Shown: piece after piece, positions 387 through 36,088 of the stretch
Numbering within the stretch: the stretch's first letter is position 1
Layout of the letters: each line of letters starts with the position of its first letter
Translations under genes and position numbers: made by a program
The notes under the pieces: model-generated
Database searches by the model: none
Seen by the model: the letters and a program-made list of their open reading frames with translations, nothing else
What the model was told of the DNA's origin: nothing
Assembly: GCA_029858255.1 (NCBI GenBank)
Contig: JAOUFJ010000004.1
Location: 30,936-94,935 of the forward strand
Length of the DNA: 64,000 nucleotides
Origin: a candidate division WOR-3 bacterium
GTDB lineage: Bacteria > Hydrothermota > Tepidihabitantia > SM23-42
Direction: 5' to 3'

Positions 387-3300
387 ATGCACGAATACGG
401 CATCGATATTGGTTCAGTGAGTATCAAGCTCGCCGAATTCTCAAACGGCAGGCTTGTTCAGACCCGATACATAAAACACCAAGGGCAGCCTTATAATCTG
501 CTGCTCAGTATATTAAAGTCAGCAGAAAAGATTGACCGGCTTGTCATGACCGGCAGTCTGGTCGAACCCCTGACCGATCTGCTCGGTGCAGTGCGTATTA
601 ACGAAGTTGAAGCTACTGCAGCCGCGATAATGCATTTCCATCCCGAGGTGAGATCGATCATCGAAATCGGCGGCGAAGATTCTAAACTCATCAACGTCAA
701 CGGAGGCATACGGGATTTTGCATCAAATACGATATGTGCTGCCGGGACCGGCATATTCCTGGATCAACAAGCCAGAAGATTATGCTATGATATTGATGAT
801 TTAGGTGACGTCGCACTGCGGGCGAAGAAGCCGGCCCGCATTGCCGGGCGCTGTTCAGTCTTTGCCAAGAGCGATATGATCCATTTACAGCAGATTGGAA
901 CCGCCCCCGACGATCTGATCGCCGGGCTGTGTCTTGCCCTGGCCCGCAATTTCAAGAGCGTGATCGCCAAAGGAAGAGAGATCGAAACACCCGTAGCATT
1001 CGTCGGCGGCGTGGCCGCAAACAAAGGTATGATAAAGGCATTCCATGAAACACTGCAAATTTCACCAGGGCAATTGCTGGTCCCTAAACACCATAACTCC
1101 GTAGGTGCAATAGGCGCCGTGCTCGCCGCAAGAAAATCGAATCTTCAATCGACATATAGGGGTCATGACAAACTGGCCGAATGGCTTGCCCTGCCAAAAA
1201 TAGTGAAACGGCTGCCACCGCTGGATGGTAAAATGCGCAGGCCTCCTACGCTATCTTCGACCATCCCGGCTCAAAAAACAACTGCCTATCTGGGCATAGA
1301 TGTGGGATCAATCTCGACCAATCTTGTACTTATCGACGAAGAGGGAAACGTCCTGGGACGCAAATACCTCTGGACCCGAGGACGGCCGATCGAGGTGGTA
1401 CTGGAAGGACTGGCCGAACTGAGCTCCGAGATCGGGGACAAGGTTGATATTGCCGGCGCCGGGACCACGGGCTCTGGAAGGTATCTGATTGGCGAGTTCA
1501 TAGGTGCCGATATCATCAAGAATGAAATAACTGCCCAGGCAAGGGCGGCATTCGAGATCGATCCTATGGTCGATACGATATTCGAGATCGGCGGGCAAGA
1601 TTCCAAATTCATAAGTCTGCGCAACAGAACGATCGTCGATTTTGAAATGAATAAAGTCTGTGCCGCAGGTACTGGTTCGTTCCTCGAGGAGCAGGCCGAA
1701 ATTCTCGGCGTCGAGCTGAAAGAATTCGGTGACCTTGCACTACAGGCAAAATCACCGATCAATCTCGGTGAGAGATGCACAGTATTCATAAATTCTGAAG
1801 TAATACATCAACAAAAAGATACACAAGAGCGCGAAAACCTGCTTGCCGGCCTGGGCTATTCGATAGTGTACAATTACCTCAACCGCGTTGTCAGCGGCAA
1901 GGAAATAGGCAAAAAGATATTCTTCCAGGGTGGGGTAGCAGCGAACAAATCCGTTGTCTCAGCATTCGAGGAAGTACTGCAAAAAGAAATCGTAGTTCCT
2001 CCCAACTACGATGTGACCGGTGCGATTGGCATAGCCCTGATCGTGCGCGACTCAAGCATTAAGCGCACCAAATTCAGAGGCCTCAATCTTGCATCGAAAT
2101 CATACACCTCGATTTCATTCACATGCAAGGACTGTAGCAACGCATGTGAAATAAATGAAATAGCTATCGCCGGCGAGGAGATTATCCATTATGGCGGTCG
2201 CTGCGGAAAATATGAAGAAAAAGAGAAAAAAAATGACAAGGTAATTCCAGATCTATTCAAACTTCGCAATGATATCTTTTTCAGAACGGAACAAACGACC
2301 GGACCCGAAATCGGTGTGCCGAGATGTCTGATCATGTATGAATTGTTTCCCTTTTTCTACGAATTTCTCAAACAACTGGGATTTAATCCGGTCCTGTCCG
2401 AACCGACGACACGCAAGGTGATTGAATATGGATCTGAACTGGCGCTTGCCGACACTTGTTTGCCGGTCAAGGTTGCCCTCGGTCAGATACAAAGCCTGCT
2501 CGGCAAGGGAATTGACCGGCTCTTCATACCAAGCGTCATTACCATGCAGCCCCAGGATGAGATTTTTCCGCGCAGCTATGTCTGTCCGTACGTCCAAGCA
2601 CTCCCTTACCTCACGAGGGCCGTGTTTGGCGAAGAAGTCGTAGTCCATGCACCCTATCTGCATTTCGACCGGGGGCAGGCAGGCGTCGAGGAATCCCTGG
2701 TACAGTTCGGCAAGGATGTCGGCAAAACAAAAAAAGAGGTAAAAAGGGCGATAGAAAAAGCCCTGAATCACTGGGTCAATATTCAAAACGAGATCAAGAA
2801 ACTCGGCAGAGATGTAATGGAGCAAATAGAACACACGGCATTTGTTGTGTGTTCAAGACCATACAATGGTTTTGACGTGGGAATGAACCTGAACTTACCA
2901 AAGAAACTTCGCGATCTCGGAGTACTGGCTATACCGCTCGATTTTCTTGATCTGGACTACAAATCAATCAAGACAGATTTCAGCAACATGTACTGGCATT
3001 ATGGCCAACGTATCATGTCGGCGGCCGAACTGATCAGAAAAGATGAACGTCTTTTCCCGGTATATTTATCTAATTTCGCCTGCGGGCCCGATTCCTTCCT
3101 CACCCGGTTCTTCCGAGAAAAGCTCGGGGCCAAACCATTCCTGCTGCTTGAAATAGATGAGCACTCCGGTGATGCCGGGTTCATAACGAGATGTGAAGCA
3201 TTTTTGGATAGCATCAGAGGCGCGAGTAGATCCGGCGCGCCAAGAAAAATAAATCAACGCAGCGAAGTAAAAGAGGGAAGAACAATATACGTGCCATATA

Positions 3301-4460
3301 TGTGCGACGGCGCGCGTGTCCTTGCCGGCGCAATGAAGCGTGCTGGCATCGATGCTGAGGTTCTGCCCAAGCCCGATGAAGAATCTATCAGCATTGGCCG
3401 GCAGTATACCTCGGGTCGAGAATGCATCCCGGCCATCATCACGGCTGGTGACATGGTAAAGAAGATAAACTCACCTGACTTTGACCCACAGAGCAGCGGA
3501 TTCTTTATGGCTCAAGGTTCTGGTCCCTGTCGCTTCGGACAGTACTACAGACTGCATCGCATCATTCTCGACGAGCTGGGACACGGAGATATTCCGATCT
3601 ATGCACCGAATCAGGGTCCGAGCTTGTTTGATGACCTCGGCACAATGGGAATCACTTTTCTCACGTCGGCATGGGACGGCGTATGCGCGGTCGATGCGTT
3701 AGAGGCGAGGGCAAGAGAGATAAGACCATACGAAGCACATGCCGGACGAACAGAGGAGATATACAATAGATACCTCGACGATTTATGCATGCTGATCGAA
3801 AGGGGAAAAAGTATTGTTCCTTTGATTCGTGAGGCAAGAAAAGATTTTGATGCAATTCGGGTTGACCGCATCGATAAACCGAAGATTGGTATTGTTGGGG
3901 AGATCTACGTGCGCTCTCAGGAATTCAGCAACAATTTTGTGATCAGACGGCTTGAAGGCCTCGGCTGCGAGATAGCTTTACCGTCCATCGGTGAGTGGTT
4001 TCTATATCTGAATTTCACCAGAGTACGTAACTGTCGTTGGTTCCGACAATACCGCAGGGTAATATTCACGAAAATATTCGACCGCTATATGAAACACCGT
4101 CAGAAAAAGATATTTGGCATTCTCGGTCTCCAACCGGAGGCTTCGGTGCATAAACTTTTCGATCATGCCAGTTCTTATATGCACTCAACCCTGGAGGGTG
4201 AAGCGGTCATGACTATCGGCAAAACCATTGATTTCATCAAGGAAGGATTCGATGGTGTCGTGAATGTAATGCCGTTCACCTGCATGCCGGGGAATACTGT
4301 CACGTCTATCTACAAGAAGATCAAAGATGATTACCGTGATTTTCCGCTCTTTAATCTATCTGTCGATGGTCTCGACCATGCGGTCGACACCATGCGGCTG
4401 GAAACCTTCGTTGCACAAGCCAGAACGCACCAGCGGGTGGTAACCTTGACAACCAGTTAG
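387..4460 (+). CDS. giant acyl-CoA dehydratase activase-related fusion protein: two BadF/BadG/BcrA/BcrD-type ATPase modules plus a DUF2229 / 2-hydroxyacyl-CoA dehydratase-like C-terminal region
   Basis: ORF track 384-4460 (TTG 384 immediately followed by ATG 387). Duplicated ATPase motifs GIDIGSVSIK..AAGTGIFLD and GIDVGSISTN..AAGTGSFLEEQA. Cys-rich linker CKDCSNACE. Long C-terminal domain as in the ~1400-aa CoA-enzyme activase fusions. Confidence 0.8.
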   Translation: MHEYGIDIGSVSIKLAEFSNGRLVQTRYIKHQGQPYNLLLSILKSAEKIDRLVMTGSLVEPLTDLLGAVRINEVEATAAAIMHFHPEVRSIIEIGGEDSKLINVNGGIRDFASNTICAAGTGIFLDQQARRLCYDIDDLGDVALRAKKPARIAGRCSVFAKSDMIHLQQIGTAPDDLIAGLCLALARNFKSVIAKGREIETPVAFVGGVAANKGMIKAFHETLQISPGQLLVPKHHNSVGAIGAVLAARKSNLQSTYRGHDKLAEWLALPKIVKRLPPLDGKMRRPPTLSSTIPAQKTTAYLGIDVGSISTNLVLIDEEGNVLGRKYLWTRGRPIEVVLEGLAELSSEIGDKVDIAGAGTTGSGRYLIGEFIGADIIKNEITAQARAAFEIDPMVDTIFEIGGQDSKFISLRNRTIVDFEMNKVCAAGTGSFLEEQAEILGVELKEFGDLALQAKSPINLGERCTVFINSEVIHQQKDTQERENLLAGLGYSIVYNYLNRVVSGKEIGKKIFFQGGVAANKSVVSAFEEVLQKEIVVPPNYDVTGAIGIALIVRDSSIKRTKFRGLNLASKSYTSISFTCKDCSNACEINEIAIAGEEIIHYGGRCGKYEEKEKKNDKVIPDLFKLRNDIFFRTEQTTGPEIGVPRCLIMYELFPFFYEFLKQLGFNPVLSEPTTRKVIEYGSELALADTCLPVKVALGQIQSLLGKGIDRLFIPSVITMQPQDEIFPRSYVCPYVQALPYLTRAVFGEEVVVHAPYLHFDRGQAGVEESLVQFGKDVGKTKKEVKRAIEKALNHWVNIQNEIKKLGRDVMEQIEHTAFVVCSRPYNGFDVGMNLNLPKKLRDLGVLAIPLDFLDLDYKSIKTDFSNMYWHYGQRIMSAAELIRKDERLFPVYLSNFACGPDSFLTRFFREKLGAKPFLLLEIDEHSGDAGFITRCEAFLDSIRGASRSGAPRKINQRSEVKEGRTIYVPYMCDGARVLAGAMKRAGIDAEVLPKPDEESISIGRQYTSGRECIPAIITAGDMVKKINSPDFDPQSSGFFMAQGSGPCRFGQYYRLHRIILDELGHGDIPIYAPNQGPSLFDDLGTMGITFLTSAWDGVCAVDALEARAREIRPYEAHAGRTEEIYNRYLDDLCMLIERGKSIVPLIREARKDFDAIRVDRIDKPKIGIVGEIYVRSQEFSNNFVIRRLEGLGCEIALPSIGEWFLYLNFTRVRNCRWFRQYRRVIFTKIFDRYMKHRQKKIFGILGLQPEASVHKLFDHASSYMHSTLEGEAVMTIGKTIDFIKEGFDGVVNVMPFTCMPGNTVTSIYKKIKDDYRDFPLFNLSVDGLDHAVDTMRLETFVAQARTHQRVVTLTTS

Positions 4461-24120: not shown

Positions 24121-24228
24121 CGTTAGGTTCGTTATTCTCGTTAATATCGTTACTCCCGCTAATCCCGCTATACTCGTTATTTGGGTTAGTCTCGCTATTC
24201 CCGTTAATATCGTTATTTACGTATCTTC
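24121..24228. repeat. array of 12 tandem degenerate 9-bp units (CGYTANNNN)
   Basis: cgttaggtt cgttattct cgttaatat cgttactcc cgctaatcc cgctatact cgttatttg ggttagtct cgctattcc cgttaatat cgttattta cgtatcttc. Begins 13 bp upstream of the -35 of the GGDEF promoter. Confidence 0.8.
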
Positions 24229-31301: not shown

Positions 31302-31330
31302 TTGACAGATCTCTTCGTAAAGGATATACT
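31302..31330 (+). promoter_or_regulatory. sigma70-type promoter of the riboswitch-btuB unit (TTGACA-17-TATACT)
   Basis: TTGACA 31302-31307, TATACT 31325-31330. Confidence 0.6.
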
Positions 31331-31495
31331 CAATCGGCTGGTGGATTCAAGGGAAGCGCCGTGAGAATCGGCCGCGGTCGCCGCCACTGTGATTCCATCT
31401 TTTCTCTGATCAACGAAAGCCACTGTTGCCGCACCCCAGGCGTGCGGACGGGAAGGCTGGTCAGGGCAGGATAAGCCAGGAGACCTATCCCCAGT
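31331..31495 (+). promoter_or_regulatory. cobalamin (B12) riboswitch
   Basis: GGTGGATTCAAGGGAAGCGCCGTGAGAATCGGC, GCCGCCACTGTGA, GAAAGCCACTG, GGGAAGGC and the B12 box AAGCCAGGAGACCT (31473-31486). Lies upstream of a TonB-dependent receptor. Confidence 0.85.
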
Positions 31496-31531
31496 CACAC
31501 GAAGATATACCTTCGGACGAAAGGAGGATGT

Positions 31532-33520
31532 ATGCTGCTTTTGTTATTATCACTGATGATCAGCCAAATCACGTATGAAATGGATGAGGTCGTGGTCACG
31601 GCGCACCGCTATCCTGCCCTCTTGAAGGACGTCACGGTTGCGGTCATGATCATAGAACGCGAGGAAATAGACAAGCTAAATGCCCTCAATCTTGGTGAAG
31701 TACTCAACGCTGCTGCCGGCATCGATTTCAAAGACTACGGAACAACTGGCGGGGTGACCAGCGTGTCCTTGCGCGGAGTGCCTTCCAATGGCACCCTGGT
31801 TCTCATCAACGGACAGCCGTTGAACGCCGTCACCAATGGCATGGCTGACCTTAGTATGATCGACATAAACACGGTCGAAAGAATAGAGATCGTCAAAGGA
31901 CCGGTTGCAAGTCTCTACGGCGCGAATGCGCTTGGCGGCGTCGTCAATATTATAACACACCGTGAACTGAGCAAACCAGACATCGCGATAAAGTTCACGC
32001 CTTCAACAACGGTAATAGACGATCCTCTTCACACAAAAGACATATCGATCAAACTTGGATTGCCGATACGGAAAACACAGTTTGACCTCAGTGGCAATTA
32101 CGGCAATTCTGATGGGCACAGGAGCAACAGCGATCTGACAAAATACCATATTACAGGCTCAATTGTTCACAAGGCCAGAAGCGCAGAATTGCGAGCGTTC
32201 ATAAACTACAGTGACAAAGAGTACGGCATTCCCGGACCTCTGCCATTTGTCGACAGCCTTCATCCAATGCCACAATTTGGCGACAGTACCGCAACCTCCC
32301 TTTTTGACCGGGAAATAGATCACTCGCTAATGGGGAATTTAGGTGCCGATTTGCAGGTTACTGACAACGTACGGTGGTACAGCAAGATTTTTGCAGACCG
32401 GAAGCATACTGTATTCAGCACTACTTACGGCGGGTGGTTGGGTGATACCATCAGCGAAAAATATGATTACCTGACTCACACGCTCGGCTTAAACACAATG
32501 CTGACAGTGCGCGCTGAGAAATTTGCTTTCGCGCTCGGTCTTGACGCCACTTATGATACCCTTCTCACGAATACTACTTCAACGCAGACCGGAGATACCG
32601 CCTGGCGTGCCAGTTCAAGCAACATAGGAGTGTGGACTGAACTGCAACTACACCTGACCGATGCGGTATCGGTTACGCCCAGCATCCGCTACGACCGCAA
32701 TTCGGCTTTCGGCGATTTCTTGTCACCCGGGATCGGTATTTCCTATATGCCGAACGAAATACTCTGGCTCAAGTTCTCGGCGGGGAAAACGTATCGCGCA
32801 CCGACCTTCAATGACCTATACTGGCCGCAATCCGGCAATCCCGACCTCGAACCAGAACACGGCTGGGCATATGAACTCCGTGCCGAGAGTTCGCCGCGAC
32901 CAAATCTTTTTGCGGCAGCGTCTCTCTTCCTGCGCAGCGTGAAGGACCGGATCGCATGGTTGCCCGAGGCCAATAACTTATGGCAGCCGCAGAACGTAAA
33001 TTTTCTGACGATAAGAGGTTTCGATCTGGAATTGAAGCATCAGATAGCCGATTTTGTCGAGCACAACCTTGAATTCACTTACTTGAATGCACGCCAGAAG
33101 AACGATGAGATCGTGTATGATTATTATGACTGGGTAGCAGATACTTCACTGACGATTTCCGAAGAGATCGAACGGTCAGCTGCCTTCACACCAGAGTACA
33201 GCGTGTCCTCAACGTTCAGTTTTACATTGCCAGGGGACTTCGGGCTCAGTATTTCGGGTCAGTATGCTTCACGTCGGATCAATTATTATGCAAATTATGA
33301 TGATTATCCGGCTGTGTACATGGATATGAAGACACTTGATGATTATTTGGTCGTCAATGCTGCGATCAGCAAAAAAATATTCAAAAATACTCGGCTGACT
33401 GTTGGTGTAAAAAATATGTTCAACAAAGAGTATTCGCTGCAATTTGGCAATGCAGTAGAAGACCGCGATTATCCTATGCCAGGGAGAGTTTATTTTGCTC
33501 AATTTAACGTAAAATATTGA
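31532..33520 (+). CDS. btuB: TonB-dependent receptor, BtuB-like cobalamin transporter
   Basis: SD AAAGGAGGA. TonB box DEVVVTA, plug motifs (GVTSVSLRG, RIEIVKGP), 22-strand barrel length, C-terminal aromatic residue. B12 riboswitch control. Confidence 0.8.
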   Translation: MLLLLLSLMISQITYEMDEVVVTAHRYPALLKDVTVAVMIIEREEIDKLNALNLGEVLNAAAGIDFKDYGTTGGVTSVSLRGVPSNGTLVLINGQPLNAVTNGMADLSMIDINTVERIEIVKGPVASLYGANALGGVVNIITHRELSKPDIAIKFTPSTTVIDDPLHTKDISIKLGLPIRKTQFDLSGNYGNSDGHRSNSDLTKYHITGSIVHKARSAELRAFINYSDKEYGIPGPLPFVDSLHPMPQFGDSTATSLFDREIDHSLMGNLGADLQVTDNVRWYSKIFADRKHTVFSTTYGGWLGDTISEKYDYLTHTLGLNTMLTVRAEKFAFALGLDATYDTLLTNTTSTQTGDTAWRASSSNIGVWTELQLHLTDAVSVTPSIRYDRNSAFGDFLSPGIGISYMPNEILWLKFSAGKTYRAPTFNDLYWPQSGNPDLEPEHGWAYELRAESSPRPNLFAAASLFLRSVKDRIAWLPEANNLWQPQNVNFLTIRGFDLELKHQIADFVEHNLEFTYLNARQKNDEIVYDYYDWVADTSLTISEEIERSAAFTPEYSVSSTFSFTLPGDFGLSISGQYASRRINYYANYDDYPAVYMDMKTLDDYLVVNAAISKKIFKNTRLTVGVKNMFNKEYSLQFGNAVEDRDYPMPGRVYFAQFNVKY

Positions 33521-33545
33521 CATAAATGTCCAGCGCGGCTATAAT
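33517..33545 (+). promoter_or_regulatory. perfect consensus sigma70 promoter of rnpB (TTGACA-17-TATAAT)
   Basis: TTGACA 33517-33522 overlaps the btuB stop. TATAAT 33540-33545. The RNA P1 helix starts at 33551. Confidence 0.7.
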
Positions 33546-33672
33546 TTCAAGTGGGGTAATCGGATAGCCGCTCCATGTGAGAGGAAAGTCCGGGCTTCAT
33601 AGGGCAGGATGCTTCCTAACTGGAAGCCGCGCACCTAAGGTGCGGGAGGAAAGTGCCACAGAAAATATACCG

Positions 33673-33883
33673 CCCAGCACCTTTGGTGACACATGAGATC
33701 GATAGAATGTGTCTGCACACGGAATGTTGACGTCCTTCAGAGAACCGGAGGCAGTAATCCGTTGAGAACACTACAAGCGATCTCATAAGAATGGCTGTAT
33801 GTCATGGCTTAATGCTTTGTCAAACCGCTGCATTTCTGATAAAGCAACAATGTACAGCTTGTTGTATCACCAAAGGTGCTGGG
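33673..33883 (+). repeat. expansion module copy 1 (extended P12), 211 nt
   Basis: Closed by the perfect 17-bp helix CCCAGCACCTTTGGTGA/TCACCAAAGGTGCTGGG. Shares conserved blocks with 33995-34205. Confidence 0.75.
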
Positions 33884-33994
33884 TAAGGGTGAAATGGCGA
33901 GGTAAGAGCTCACCACTCTGATGGTGACATCAGAGGTACGGCAAACCCCATCCGAAGCAAAACCAAGCAGTTCCAGTAGAGGCGGCCCGCCTTC

Positions 33995-34205
33995 CCCCGC
34001 ACCTGTGGCGGCATATGAGATCGATGCAACGAGTGCTTAGAGGAAACATATCCGTCCTTCAAAGAATTGGAGGAGGAATTCTCTTGAGTGTTCTACAAGC
34101 GATCTCAGAACAATGGCTGCATCTTGCACCTTTGAGTTTTATCAACTTGTTGAGTTAATGATACAGCAACAGCGTGCAGCTTGTTATGCCACCAAAGGTG
34201 CGGGG
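33995..34205 (+). repeat. expansion module copy 2 (between P17 and the 3' strand of P16), 211 nt
   Basis: Closed by CCCCGCACC/GGTGCGGGG. Shares ATGAGATCGAT, GTCCTTCA.AGAA..GGAGG, CTACAAGCGATCTCA, AATGGCTG, CAGCTTGTT and CACCAAAGGTGC with copy 1. Confidence 0.75.
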
Positions 34206-34308
34206 CTGGAACGGGTAGGTTGCGCAGAACCCGGCAGTGATGCCGGGACAAGAGAAATGGCTATCTATTACAGAACCCGGCTTATAGATTACCCCACATC
34301 TGAAGCAG

Positions 34309-34337
34309 TTGACAAATAGTAATCACATAAGTATTAT
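34309..34337 (+). promoter_or_regulatory. sigma70-type promoter upstream of recJ (TTGACA-17-TATTAT)
   Basis: TTGACA 34309-34314, TATTAT 34332-34337. About 50-nt leader to ATG 34394. Confidence 0.5.
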
Positions 34338-34393: not shown

Positions 34394-36088
34394 ATGACCA
34401 AATGGCAACCTAAGAATAATAATGCAGAGGCAACCGCCCTGCAGATCAGAGGCAAAAGCGTGCCGCGAGCAATAGTCCAGATCCTTCAGAACCGCGGTTA
34501 CCACACTCCACAGGCAATAGAGAAATTCTTTGCACCATCTCTTTCTGACCTTCACGATCCTTTCTTGCTGCAAGACATGGAAAAAGCGGTCACACGCATC
34601 ATGCGTGCAGTAGATAACAAAGAAAAAGTGCTGATCCACGGCGATTATGATACCGATGGGATAACCGCAACTGCTCTGATGGTCAGGAATCTAACAAAAT
34701 TGGGTTTACGCATCCAGCACTACATCCCCCACCGCCTGGAGGAAGGTTATGGCTTATCTTCAAGTGGTATCAACCATGCCATAGAAGAAAGGTGCACATT
34801 GATCATCACCGTCGACTGCGGCAGCGGCGCACTCAATGAAATCGCATATGCAAACGAGCACAAGATCGATGTCATTGTCTGCGACCACCATCAACCGAAG
34901 GACCGCTTGCCTGATGCACTGGCTCTCATAAACCCCAAACTTCCGGGCAGTAATTATCCTTTCAAGGAACTGGCAGGAGTCGGCGTCGCCTTCAAACTCC
35001 TGGCCGCGCTCCAACAAAAAATGGGCAGGCCAATGGAAGAATTACATGGCGACCTGGACCTTGTCGCGCTGGGAACTGTGGTAGACGTCGTTCCCCTGAT
35101 TGATGAAAACCGGGTTCTCGTGAAATACGGCATGAAAAGAATCCTGCACAGCCGGAAAAAAGGCATCCAGGCGTTATTGAAAGAAACGGGCATAAGCAAA
35201 GAATTGAATTCATACCATCTCAGTTTCATAATCGGCCCCCGCATAAATGCCTGCGGCCGGCTGCACGATGCAAAACTCGCTCTTGAGCTTCTGCTCACCG
35301 AAGACATGTCCCATGCGCTGAAGTTAGCGCACGGTCTCACGGTCGATAACGAGGAAAGAAAAAAAATCCAGGATGAAACGTATGCAAATGCCATTTCGAT
35401 CATGAAAGACACAAAGCGAGACAAGGACCGTATCATAGTGCTGGCTAATGATGATTGGCATGAAGGCGTGCTCGGTATCGTTGCATCAAGAATCGCCTCC
35501 GAGCATTTCCGCCCGACCATAATATTGACCCTGAAACAGGAAACGGCAAAAGGTTCGGCGCGCTCTATTCCGGGTTTCGATATCACCGGCGCAATCGGGA
35601 CTTGCTCTGAACTGCTTGTAAAGTACGGCGGACACGCTCAAGCTGCCGGGTTGGAATTGAAGCAGGATAATCTTGAACGCTTCAGAACCTGCATCAACGA
35701 GAATGCGCAGAATTTCGACAGTTCGGTTTTCGAAAAGCAGAGTTATTATGACATCAAGCTCGGGTTGGATGAAATAACAAACGAACTGGTGTATTTCCTC
35801 AAATACTTTGAGCCGACCGGTATTGCCAACCCGCAGCCGGTTTTCCTTGGTGAAGATCTCGAGGTCGTCGGCGTACCGCGGGTGATCGGCACGAACCATT
35901 TGAAGATCGCCTTACGCCAGGGGAAAAAAGCATTTCCCGCCATCGCTTTCGAACGGGCTGAGGAAATTCTCGGTATCGAGATCGGCAAAACAAGGGTCAA
36001 TTGTCTTTACTCACTAGCCGAGGATTCTTACCTCGGCAAGAGAAAGACAAGCCTGAAGATAAAGGACCTGGAGAAGATAGTGTCATGA
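34394..36088 (+). CDS. recJ: single-stranded-DNA-specific exonuclease RecJ
   Basis: DHH-family motifs HGDYDTDGITA, VDCGSG, VCDHHQP and DHHA1 GGHAQAAG. Confidence 0.9.
   Translation: MTKWQPKNNNAEATALQIRGKSVPRAIVQILQNRGYHTPQAIEKFFAPSLSDLHDPFLLQDMEKAVTRIMRAVDNKEKVLIHGDYDTDGITATALMVRNLTKLGLRIQHYIPHRLEEGYGLSSSGINHAIEERCTLIITVDCGSGALNEIAYANEHKIDVIVCDHHQPKDRLPDALALINPKLPGSNYPFKELAGVGVAFKLLAALQQKMGRPMEELHGDLDLVALGTVVDVVPLIDENRVLVKYGMKRILHSRKKGIQALLKETGISKELNSYHLSFIIGPRINACGRLHDAKLALELLLTEDMSHALKLAHGLTVDNEERKKIQDETYANAISIMKDTKRDKDRIIVLANDDWHEGVLGIVASRIASEHFRPTIILTLKQETAKGSARSIPGFDITGAIGTCSELLVKYGGHAQAAGLELKQDNLERFRTCINENAQNFDSSVFEKQSYYDIKLGLDEITNELVYFLKYFEPTGIANPQPVFLGEDLEVVGVPRVIGTNHLKIALRQGKKAFPAIAFERAEEILGIEIGKTRVNCLYSLAEDSYLGKRKTSLKIKDLEKIVS

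Follow-up and report, generated by a model that had tools for sequence, protein, structure and literature searches.

How does a bacterial ribonuclease P (RNase P) RNA, a textbook conserved ribozyme of about 330-450 nt, come to be encoded by a gene of some 746 nt, and what is the additional sequence? The question is raised by rnpB in a 64,000-nt stretch of contig JAOUFJ010000004.1 (hereafter, the window), which RecJ places in candidate division WOR-3. We show here that the extra length consists of two copies of a module that belongs to a family specific, as far as could be searched, to rnpB, and we then consider what the modules may be and what may become of them in the RNA.

A covariance model search with RF00010 (Rfam) matched positions 33552-34300 of the plus strand with 237.9 bits (gathering score 100, E=4e-76). 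The match covers the full class A model (positions 1-367), and core blocks GAGGAAAGUCCGGGC, GUAAGGGUGAAA and ACAGAACCCGGCUUA were aligned at high posterior probability. The 11-bp helix P1 is perfect, 33551-33561 (GTGGGGTAATC) being paired with its exact reverse complement, 34287-34297. The loop of P17, GGCCC, resembles L17 of E. coli. The gene is preceded by a sigma-70-type promoter with consensus hexamers and a 17-nt spacer (12 of 12 matches), the −10 hexamer of which is kept in relatives. Two large inserts were revealed in the alignment, one of about 200 nt in the P12 loop and another of 207 nt after the P17 hairpin, inside P16, whose 3′ strand (34206-34212) pairs with 33970-33976. Without the inserts the core is about 366 nt long. 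Over the 276 columns outside the three variable hairpins (see below) it differs at one position from the core of a sister allele, L001, that contains no insert. This near-identity suggests that the RNA encoded in the window carries out 5′ processing of pre-tRNA. The original prediction had described a type A RNA with this promoter, this P1 helix and two paralogous modules, one in P12 and the other between P17 and the 3′ strand of P16; the covariance model placed the core and both inserts just as described.

The two inserts were also predicted to be exactly 211 nt each, to share conserved blocks, to be closed, in copy 1, by a perfect 17-bp helix, and to maintain an internal helix by a compensatory change. 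Each of these features was found. The copies align without gaps at about 70% identity, the shared blocks and the 17-bp helix are present, and one internal helix reads GGCTGTA/TACAGCT in one copy and GGCTGCA/TGCAGCT in the other. The minimum free energies of the two copies correspond to z-scores of −7.0 and −5.6 relative to dinucleotide shuffles. The description of the module as structured was borne out in part: it is secure only for the 21-bp basal helix; the interior folds no better than shuffled sequences (mean z −1.4).

The order of cobalamin riboswitch, TonB-dependent receptor, rnpB and recJ is kept among relatives of the window, and because of this conservation 12 further distinct rnpB alleles could be fetched through RecJ relatives. 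In the resulting set of 13 syntenic WOR-3 alleles (Table 2) the lengths were taken from Rfam matches and the modules were identified with a module hidden Markov model (HMM). Fifteen distinct module copies were found at three sites: P12, the hairpin 3′ of P17 (site C) and the P9 loop, a third insertion site that came to light through the relatives. Six alleles carry two or three copies and are 749-945 nt long, while the remaining seven carry none and are 369-440 nt long. Two features expected of an intervening sequence (IVS) were observed. First, the presence of modules is sporadic among close relatives, with sister pairs differing in occupancy. Second, comparison of filled and empty P9, P12 and C sites revealed that an extended stem-loop stands in place of the terminal loop of a conserved helix.

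We searched for the module outside of rnpB. No further copy was found within the window, and neither the HMM nor a covariance model detected extra copies in 158-559 kb of WOR-3 loci. The covariance model (R1), built from the 15 copies, recovered only those copies in 158 kb of WOR-3 DNA, with scores of 164-222 bits on the plus strand and 33-49 bits on the minus strand. We also scanned genomes of 185,579 species, one for each, with a pattern to which 12 of the 15 copies conform. Of the 50 loci obtained, only rnpB of the closed chromosome CP070802.1 (L002) is genuine; the other 49 are chance matches in unrelated high-GC genomes, where the module HMM finds nothing. In this 2.37-Mb chromosome the two copies in rnpB are therefore the only matches to the 12-of-15 pattern. 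A phage origin was rejected, as there was no blastn match among 50,697 phage records and no pattern match in IMG/VR viral contigs. A scan of metagenome contigs gave a single match, by chance, a weak negative given that the collection evidently does not include the module-bearing JGI contigs. Within the inserts no Rfam family other than RNase P was detected (E up to 10 in the window and up to 1 on four other loci), and ARAGORN found no tRNA-like gene. The suspicion, raised with the original prediction, that the module might prove to be a common intergenic repeat was not borne out, as copies were found only in rnpB. We found no description in the literature of paralogous modules at several sites of RNase P RNA.

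Sister lineages differ in occupancy. The RecJ tree pairs the window with L001, an allele free of modules, and L065, which has two modules, with L064, which has none; bootstrap support is 100% for each pair. With just one of 276 core columns differing between the window and L001, the gain or loss of modules must be recent relative to core divergence. The copies group by genome rather than by site (96% identity between the P9 and P12 copies of L059, 85% between the P9 and C copies of L003, 78% between the P9 and P12 copies of L063), and related copies are also present in distant hosts, the nearest relative of the P12 copy of the window being the site C copy of L063 (83%). Judged by these identities, copies have moved or have been converted between sites. 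The rnpB gene itself is mosaic relative to the RecJ tree. The core of L059 has 6 differences from that of the window and 22-25 from those of its RecJ relatives L003 and L063, and the P16/P17 segment of L001 is like that of the distant lineage L065 and unlike that of the window. Both observations suggest that alleles of rnpB have recombined. It is thus sufficient, to account for the patchy distribution, that alleles are exchanged entirely or in part by homologous recombination, for which the conserved core would provide the homology arms.

The junctions provide further clues. At P12 and at site C the short native hairpins of module-free alleles differ in sequence and have been replaced, not split; copy 2 of the window, for example, stands in place of a short native hairpin found in L002, L057 and L069. 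The proximal stem CCCNGCACC/GGUGCNGGG recurs at every filled site; it is also the stem that P9 natively has in this clade, and for this reason the copied unit was probably the P9 stem together with the module. One allele, L069, has module-type stems and no insert, both in P9 (GCACC-TTT-GGTGC) and in P12 (CAGCGCC-TCT-GGTGCTG). Such bare stems are what a deletion between the insert-flanking GGTG repeats would leave or, alternatively, they may represent the target before insertion.

The reading that we favor, with a probability of about one half, is that of an undescribed, rnpB-specific family of IVS-like modules that are transcribed as part of the precursor, are probably excised at the 21-bp helix, and are spread and lost through recombination between alleles and conversion between sites. 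The module is a hairpin-shaped unit of about 190-213 nt set on a peripheral hairpin, P9, P12 or an extra one beside P17. Its basal helix (H0, 21 bp) lengthens the host hairpin and carries a cap composed of the conserved helix H1, a possible H-type pseudoknot and two variable regions of about 72 nt. The whole module would be transcribed from the rnpB promoter within the precursor. An endonuclease of the RNase III type, specific for double strands, would cut the substrate-like basal helix and remove the module, leaving a ribozyme in pieces whose association would depend on its tertiary fold and on the stems that remain. Spread and loss would follow two routes, homologous recombination between rnpB alleles across the conserved core, and copying or gene conversion among the three sites that share the proximal stem; the first copies would, in addition, have had to arrive at new hairpins. 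The full type A core and the confinement of inserts to terminal hairpins support this scheme, as do the distribution over alleles and sites, the finding of copies in rnpB only, the covarying pairs of H0 and the lower GC content of the module interiors.

Several points weigh against it. Excision is a step that we infer, and an RNase P RNA in three or four pieces would, to our knowledge, be unprecedented. Mere excised junk should conserve H0 alone, yet blocks AUGAGAUCGAU, CGUCCUUCAGAGAA, UACAAGCGAUCUCA and CAGCUUGUUGU are conserved in copies whose variable parts are near saturation, and an open, codon-like frame is kept by all copies. In H0, G-U pairs (6) are not more numerous than C-A mismatches (7), so this helix alone cannot tell constraint at the RNA level from constraint at the DNA level. 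Finally, the scheme does not account for the move of a first copy to a second and a third hairpin; the junctions show a GGTG microhomology of just 4 nt and no evident duplication of a target site.

The conservation of the module interior may instead mean that modules are retained in the mature 750-945-nt RNA as folded appendages, serving as protein platforms, folding aids or tertiary struts, with the conserved blocks as their functional core. We regard this as possible though rather improbable. The relevant evidence comes from an alignment (A4) of the 15 copies over 213 columns. In H0 (columns 1-21 with 193-213) 95% of the cells are paired, and both partners vary in 8 of the 20 pairs; strong covariation is confined to this helix. 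The 8-bp H1 (UGAGAUCG with CGAUCUCA, columns 22-29 with 107-114) is 97% paired and near-invariant, with no covariation. ACAAG (columns 102-106) can pair with CUUGU (columns 188-192) in 96% of cases; a single pair covaries, from A:U to G:C in 5 copies, probably through one event. Together with H1 this pairing would form an H-type pseudoknot; in a nested alternative, columns 126-132 would instead pair with 186-192 (78% paired). The remaining internal helices are weak (67-73% paired). Blocks AUGAGAUCGAU, CGUCCUUCAGAGAA, UACAAGCGAUCUCA, UCAAACCG and CAGCUUGUUGU are conserved despite an identity of only 30-60% in the variable segments, and the interior must therefore be under selection. The conserved open frame, like these blocks, indicates selection on the interior.

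Despite their long divergence the 15 copies all keep the internal sequence blocks, H1 and the candidate pseudoknot, as one would expect of retained appendages, and peripheral hairpins should tolerate such additions. On the other hand, seven close alleles, including a sister with an almost identical core, manage without any module, and the copy number ranges from 0 to 3. The thermodynamically ordinary interior (z-scores of the two variable domains are −0.8 and −0.4) and internal helices that are just 67-78% paired also speak against a folded appendage. Several resemblances to known RNA elements were considered and rejected. CACCA in the 3′ arm, which recalls the CCA end of a tRNA, is lost through covariation in the copies of L063, a hammerhead-like CUGAUGA is present in one copy only, a kink-turn beside H1 has the required GA out of place, and the likeness of CGAUCUCAGAACAAUGGCUGC to the P18-J18/2-P2 region of RNase P RNA is due to chance, AAUGGCUG being confined to the window copies.

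The open frame suggests a different function for the interior. From a conserved AUG (columns 21-23) to column 113 this frame contains no stop codons in any of the 15 copies, whereas 33 and 34 were counted in the remaining forward frames. The AUG is located 3 nt after a Shine-Dalgarno-like GGUGA motif in most copies, and the frame ends exactly at the closure of H1. Beyond column 113, which provides an internal control, no frame is stop-free. When only the variable segments were shuffled, the joint probability of such a frame ranged from 5e-5 (8 divergent copies) to 5e-7 (12 copies). In variable columns G occupies codon positions 1, 2 and 3 with frequencies of 44%, 32% and 10%, position 1 exceeding position 3 in 14 copies, with a tie in one. 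We conclude that the coding-like signal is real, its cause being unexplained. The module could accordingly be read as a mini-cassette, a translated short gene of at least 31 codons behind GGUGA, where either translation or a fast-evolving peptide is selected. It would be expressed co-transcriptionally or as a small mRNA after excision, with which it could coexist. In the conserved blocks several substitutions leave the encoded residue unchanged, two of them at the cost of H1 pairs, as would be expected if the frame were translated.

We nevertheless consider a mini-cassette unlikely. Of the properties expected of a small open reading frame (ORF), openness in all homologues and codon-position bias are present in the 15 copies, while amino-acid conservation, indels in multiples of three and homologues elsewhere were not found. 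The mean BLOSUM62 score of differing codons is −0.23 in this frame versus −0.27 and +0.24 in the others, that is, there is no conservation of the peptide beyond the nucleotide level, and the ratio of nonsynonymous to synonymous polymorphism (pN/pS) is about 0.4-1.0. Because of 1-nt indels in four copies, the conserved block TACAAGCGATCTCA would be translated as ITSDL or, in a different frame, as LQAIS, depending on the copy, and ORF lengths vary from 31 to more than 64 codons. Both the AUG and the Shine-Dalgarno-like motif are buried in H0 and H1. The frame product has no Pfam family, and an AlphaFold model of it, one generic helix, is uninformative. A real conserved protein was rejected, since a profile search and phmmer against 1.84 billion representatives returned only ORFs called on other module copies; the sole database relative of the copy 2 frame is a 45-aa called ORF that looks like one more such copy. 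Translation itself may matter more than the peptide.

Excision and translation can also be combined in one speculative proposal, to which we give little credence: the module may be a selfish cassette living only in rnpB, with a pseudoknotted core and a translated mini-ORF, that would leave the precursor as a small mRNA, with the ribozyme then in three or four pieces, and would copy itself between hairpins and lineages. If true, a protein-coding or translation-dependent element would be nested in, and dependent on, RNase P RNA.

Mobility could also operate at the level of DNA. A miniature inverted-repeat transposable element (MITE), a REPIN (a paired repetitive extragenic palindromic element) or a derivative of an insertion sequence might target palindromic GCACC-NNN-GGTGC hairpins with the help of a transposase encoded elsewhere. 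The ends of the inserts are indeed 17-21-nt inverted repeats, coinciding with H0, with each arm itself partly palindromic. The patchy occupancy and hopping between sites, exemplified by the nearly identical P9 and P12 copies within the single rnpB of L059, as well as the lack of an RNA-strand bias in the G-U and C-A counts in H0, agree with such an element. However, dispersed copies, the hallmark of a MITE, were seen neither in the 185,579 species genomes, the closed chromosome among them, with the 12-of-15 pattern, nor in the window and WOR-3 loci with the HMM and covariance model. The palindrome GCACC-N(2-6)-GGTGC is not a genome-wide repeat motif. No clear target-site duplication was seen: the repeats flanking the inserts are inverted, the only direct repeat at the junctions being the 4-nt GGTG. 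The replacement of native hairpins at P12 and C is likewise not what simple insertion would produce. A DNA element is, in our view, quite improbable.

Still less probable is a self-splicing or self-cleaving intron-like ribozyme. The order of strands in the module (H1, domain, pseudoknot, H1, domain, pseudoknot) is that of the P3/P7 pseudoknot of group I introns, the 5′ strand of the candidate pseudoknot runs straight into the 3′ strand of H1, the element resides in a loop of a structured RNA, and its size is near that of the smallest group I introns. Yet the Rfam searches described above matched neither Intron_gpI (RF00028) nor any self-cleaving ribozyme. A P1 with a U-G pair at the 5′ splice site cannot be drawn, GGUG being only 3 nt from CACC, and both ends of the module pair in a covarying 21-bp helix, unlike those of an intron. 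Covariation supports the pseudoknot with one event, and the nested pairing competes with it. An assembly artefact, against which the original prediction had advised a check, or a pseudogene, for neither of which we found a supporting point, can be dismissed: the same architecture and sites recur in independent NCBI, JGI and ENA assemblies, an artefact is ruled out by the recovery of identical alleles from 2 and from 4 separate metagenomes and by the closed chromosome, the core is intact and nearly identical to that of module-free alleles, and synteny and promoter are conserved.

Table 1. Position of rnpB and of the elements of its two modules in the window
Feature	Position	Strand	Evidence
rnpB promoter, sigma-70 type: TTGACA 33517-33522, 17-nt spacer, TATAAT 33540-33545	33517..33545	+	12/12 consensus
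rnpB, bacterial type A, both inserts included, ~746 nt	33552..34297	+	RF00010 and P1 pairing
P9 hairpin CCGCGCACC-UAA-GGUGCGGG, module site empty in the window genome	33627..33647	+	occupied in L002, L003, L059, L063, L065
Module copy 1, in P12, 211 nt including proximal stem CCCAGCACC/GGUGCUGGG	33673..33883	+	nhmmer 195.9 bits; covariance model R1 209.9 bits
Copy 1, H0 5′ arm, pairs with 33863-33883	33673..33693	+	alignment columns 1-21 with 193-213
Copy 1, stop-free frame from conserved AUG, 31 codons and stop	33693..33788	+	0 stops in frame, 15/15 copies
Copy 1, H1 5′ strand UGAGAUCG, pairs with 33778-33785 (CGAUCUCA)	33694..33701	+	columns 22-29 with 107-114
Copy 1, ACAAG, candidate pseudoknot partner of 33858-33862 (CUUGU)	33773..33777	+	columns 102-106 with 188-192
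Copy 1, H0 3′ arm	33863..33883	+	alignment columns 1-21 with 193-213
P16 5′ strand 33970-33976 and P17 hairpin 33979-33994 (GGCCC loop)	33970..33994	+	sequence and covariance model alignments
Module copy 2, extra hairpin 3′ of P17, inside P16 (site C)	33995..34205	+	nhmmer 185.0 bits; covariance model R1 186.6 bits
Copy 2, H0 5′ arm, pairs with 34185-34205	33995..34015	+	fold and alignment
Copy 2, stop-free frame from conserved AUG, 47 codons and stop	34015..34158	+	frame count over copies
Copy 2, H1 5′ strand, pairs with 34100-34107	34016..34023	+	alignment and sequence
Copy 2, ACAAG, candidate pseudoknot partner of 34180-34184 (CUUGU)	34095..34099	+	alignment and sequence

Table 2. Length and module content of the 13 distinct WOR-3 rnpB alleles
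Allele	RecJ identity to window	rnpB length (nt)	Modules
Window	100%	749	P12, C
L001	90%	386	none
L002 (closed chromosome CP070802.1)	87%	791	P9, P12
L057	86%	372	none
L069	84%	~408	none
L058	83%	372	none
L063	72%	938	P9, P12, C
L003 (= L004)	71%	945	P9, P12, C
L064	70%	369	none
L059	67%	917	P9, P12, C
L065 (= L066-68)	67%	752	P9, P12
L060 (= L061-62)	66%	372	none
L005	63%	440	none

The rnpB genes of the clade vary at several further points. A separate two-hairpin insertion of about 40 nt (CCCGUUAAAUCGGG, CGUCCUAAUAGGACG) is located between P14 and the 3′ strands of P11/P10 in L002 (~3700-3740), L069 (~1740-1780) and L005 (~3190-3230) and is absent from the window, L001, L003 and others. The gene of L005 also has an extra 37-nt extension in P13. 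In the empty P9 stem of the window the third position (33629) is changed from C to G (CCGCGCACC versus CCCCGCACC in most of the clade), which creates a G-G mismatch with the 3′ strand. Upstream of rnpB, a cobalamin riboswitch (RF00174, 64.4 bits; 31325-31506) directly precedes the gene of a 662-aa BtuB-like TonB-dependent receptor (31532-33520), an arrangement that is kept in relatives. Downstream, recJ (34394-36088) begins 97 nt past rnpB. A second near-consensus promoter, presumably that of recJ, is found at 34309-34337, 12 nt past the rnpB end (TTGACA, 17-nt spacer, TATTAT; 11 of 12 matches). Elsewhere in the window, positions 24122-24215 contain 9-nt-periodic imperfect repeats (GTTANNNNC-like units; repeat-scan family D1), which may encode a 3-residue protein repeat.

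Through insertion, copying and loss of one module family at three hairpins, natural rnpB alleles of a single clade thus span 369-945 nt. If the modules are excised, these organisms would possess a natural multi-piece RNase P, which would widen the single precedent of Thermodesulfatator indicus and carry the IVS phenomenon from rRNA to a new RNA. With the modules retained, the RNAs would be among the largest bacterial RNase P RNAs and would constitute a natural test of the carrying capacity of the ribozyme periphery. The conserved open frame within a non-coding RNA gene is an unexplained feature. In practical terms the modules are an annotation hazard, for they lower covariance model scores (202-243 bits for module-bearing alleles versus 260-272 bits for module-free ones) and draw spurious ORF calls. 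Gene callers put hypothetical ORFs of 69-93 aa over modules and RNase P core in L065 (1389-1601), L059 (2311-2520) and L066 (1332-1613, minus strand).

Among known systems, group I introns are similar to the WOR-3 modules in being small structured inserts in genes of structured RNAs, with a comparable order of pseudoknot strands; the modules differ from them in having no RF00028 match, no P1 or U-G splice site, and ends that form one long helix. MITEs and REPINs, such as Correia elements, are also small, have inverted-repeat ends, form a long RNA hairpin when transcribed and show patchy occupancy, but MITEs are dispersed in many copies, whereas the module was found only in rnpB, with no clear target-site duplication. 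Very large insertions are retained in the RNase P RNA of Candida glabrata, RPR1, and short tandemly repeated repetitive (STRR) sequences are present in P12 of RNase P RNA from heterocystous cyanobacteria. As in the WOR-3 clade, the RNase P RNAs of these organisms accommodate large additions, specific to the lineage, in their peripheral helices. We know of no report that the RPR1 or STRR additions are paralogous copies of one conserved module that varies between sister lineages.

The IVSs of 23S rRNA are sporadic among close relatives and have a lower GC content than the host RNA. In the WOR-3 modules the GC content of the interiors is 0.40-0.52 versus 0.55-0.60 in the core. The 23S rRNA IVSs, for example that of Coxiella burnetii, are sporadic stem-loop inserts, some of which carry an ORF (PMC4990558). 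They are located in helices 9, 25 and 45, are removed by RNase III without religation and are regarded as selfish. The modules, too, are extended stem-loops that take the place of a terminal loop, on a conserved helix of a stable RNA that is essential. They differ from 23S rRNA IVSs in that the host is RNase P RNA and not rRNA, that one family occupies three helices of one gene, and that excision is, for the modules, what we infer.

The closest precedent is a P12 expansion of the RNase P RNA of T. indicus, which a related bacterium lacks and whose excision in vivo gives rise to a fragmented RNA (Goessringer et al., RNA 2023; PMC9945441). Like that segment, the WOR-3 modules are lineage-variable, can be located in P12 and are missing from a close relative. 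In T. indicus a single site is involved, about 70 nt are removed, and no paralogous copies of the segment are known to us. The WOR-3 modules are 200-213 nt long, occupy three sites with up to three copies per gene, and contain conserved internal blocks and an open frame. What is unusual relative to the known intervening and expansion segments of stable RNAs is the use of three sites, the paralogy of the copies, their restriction to rnpB as far as this could be searched, and the conserved open frame.

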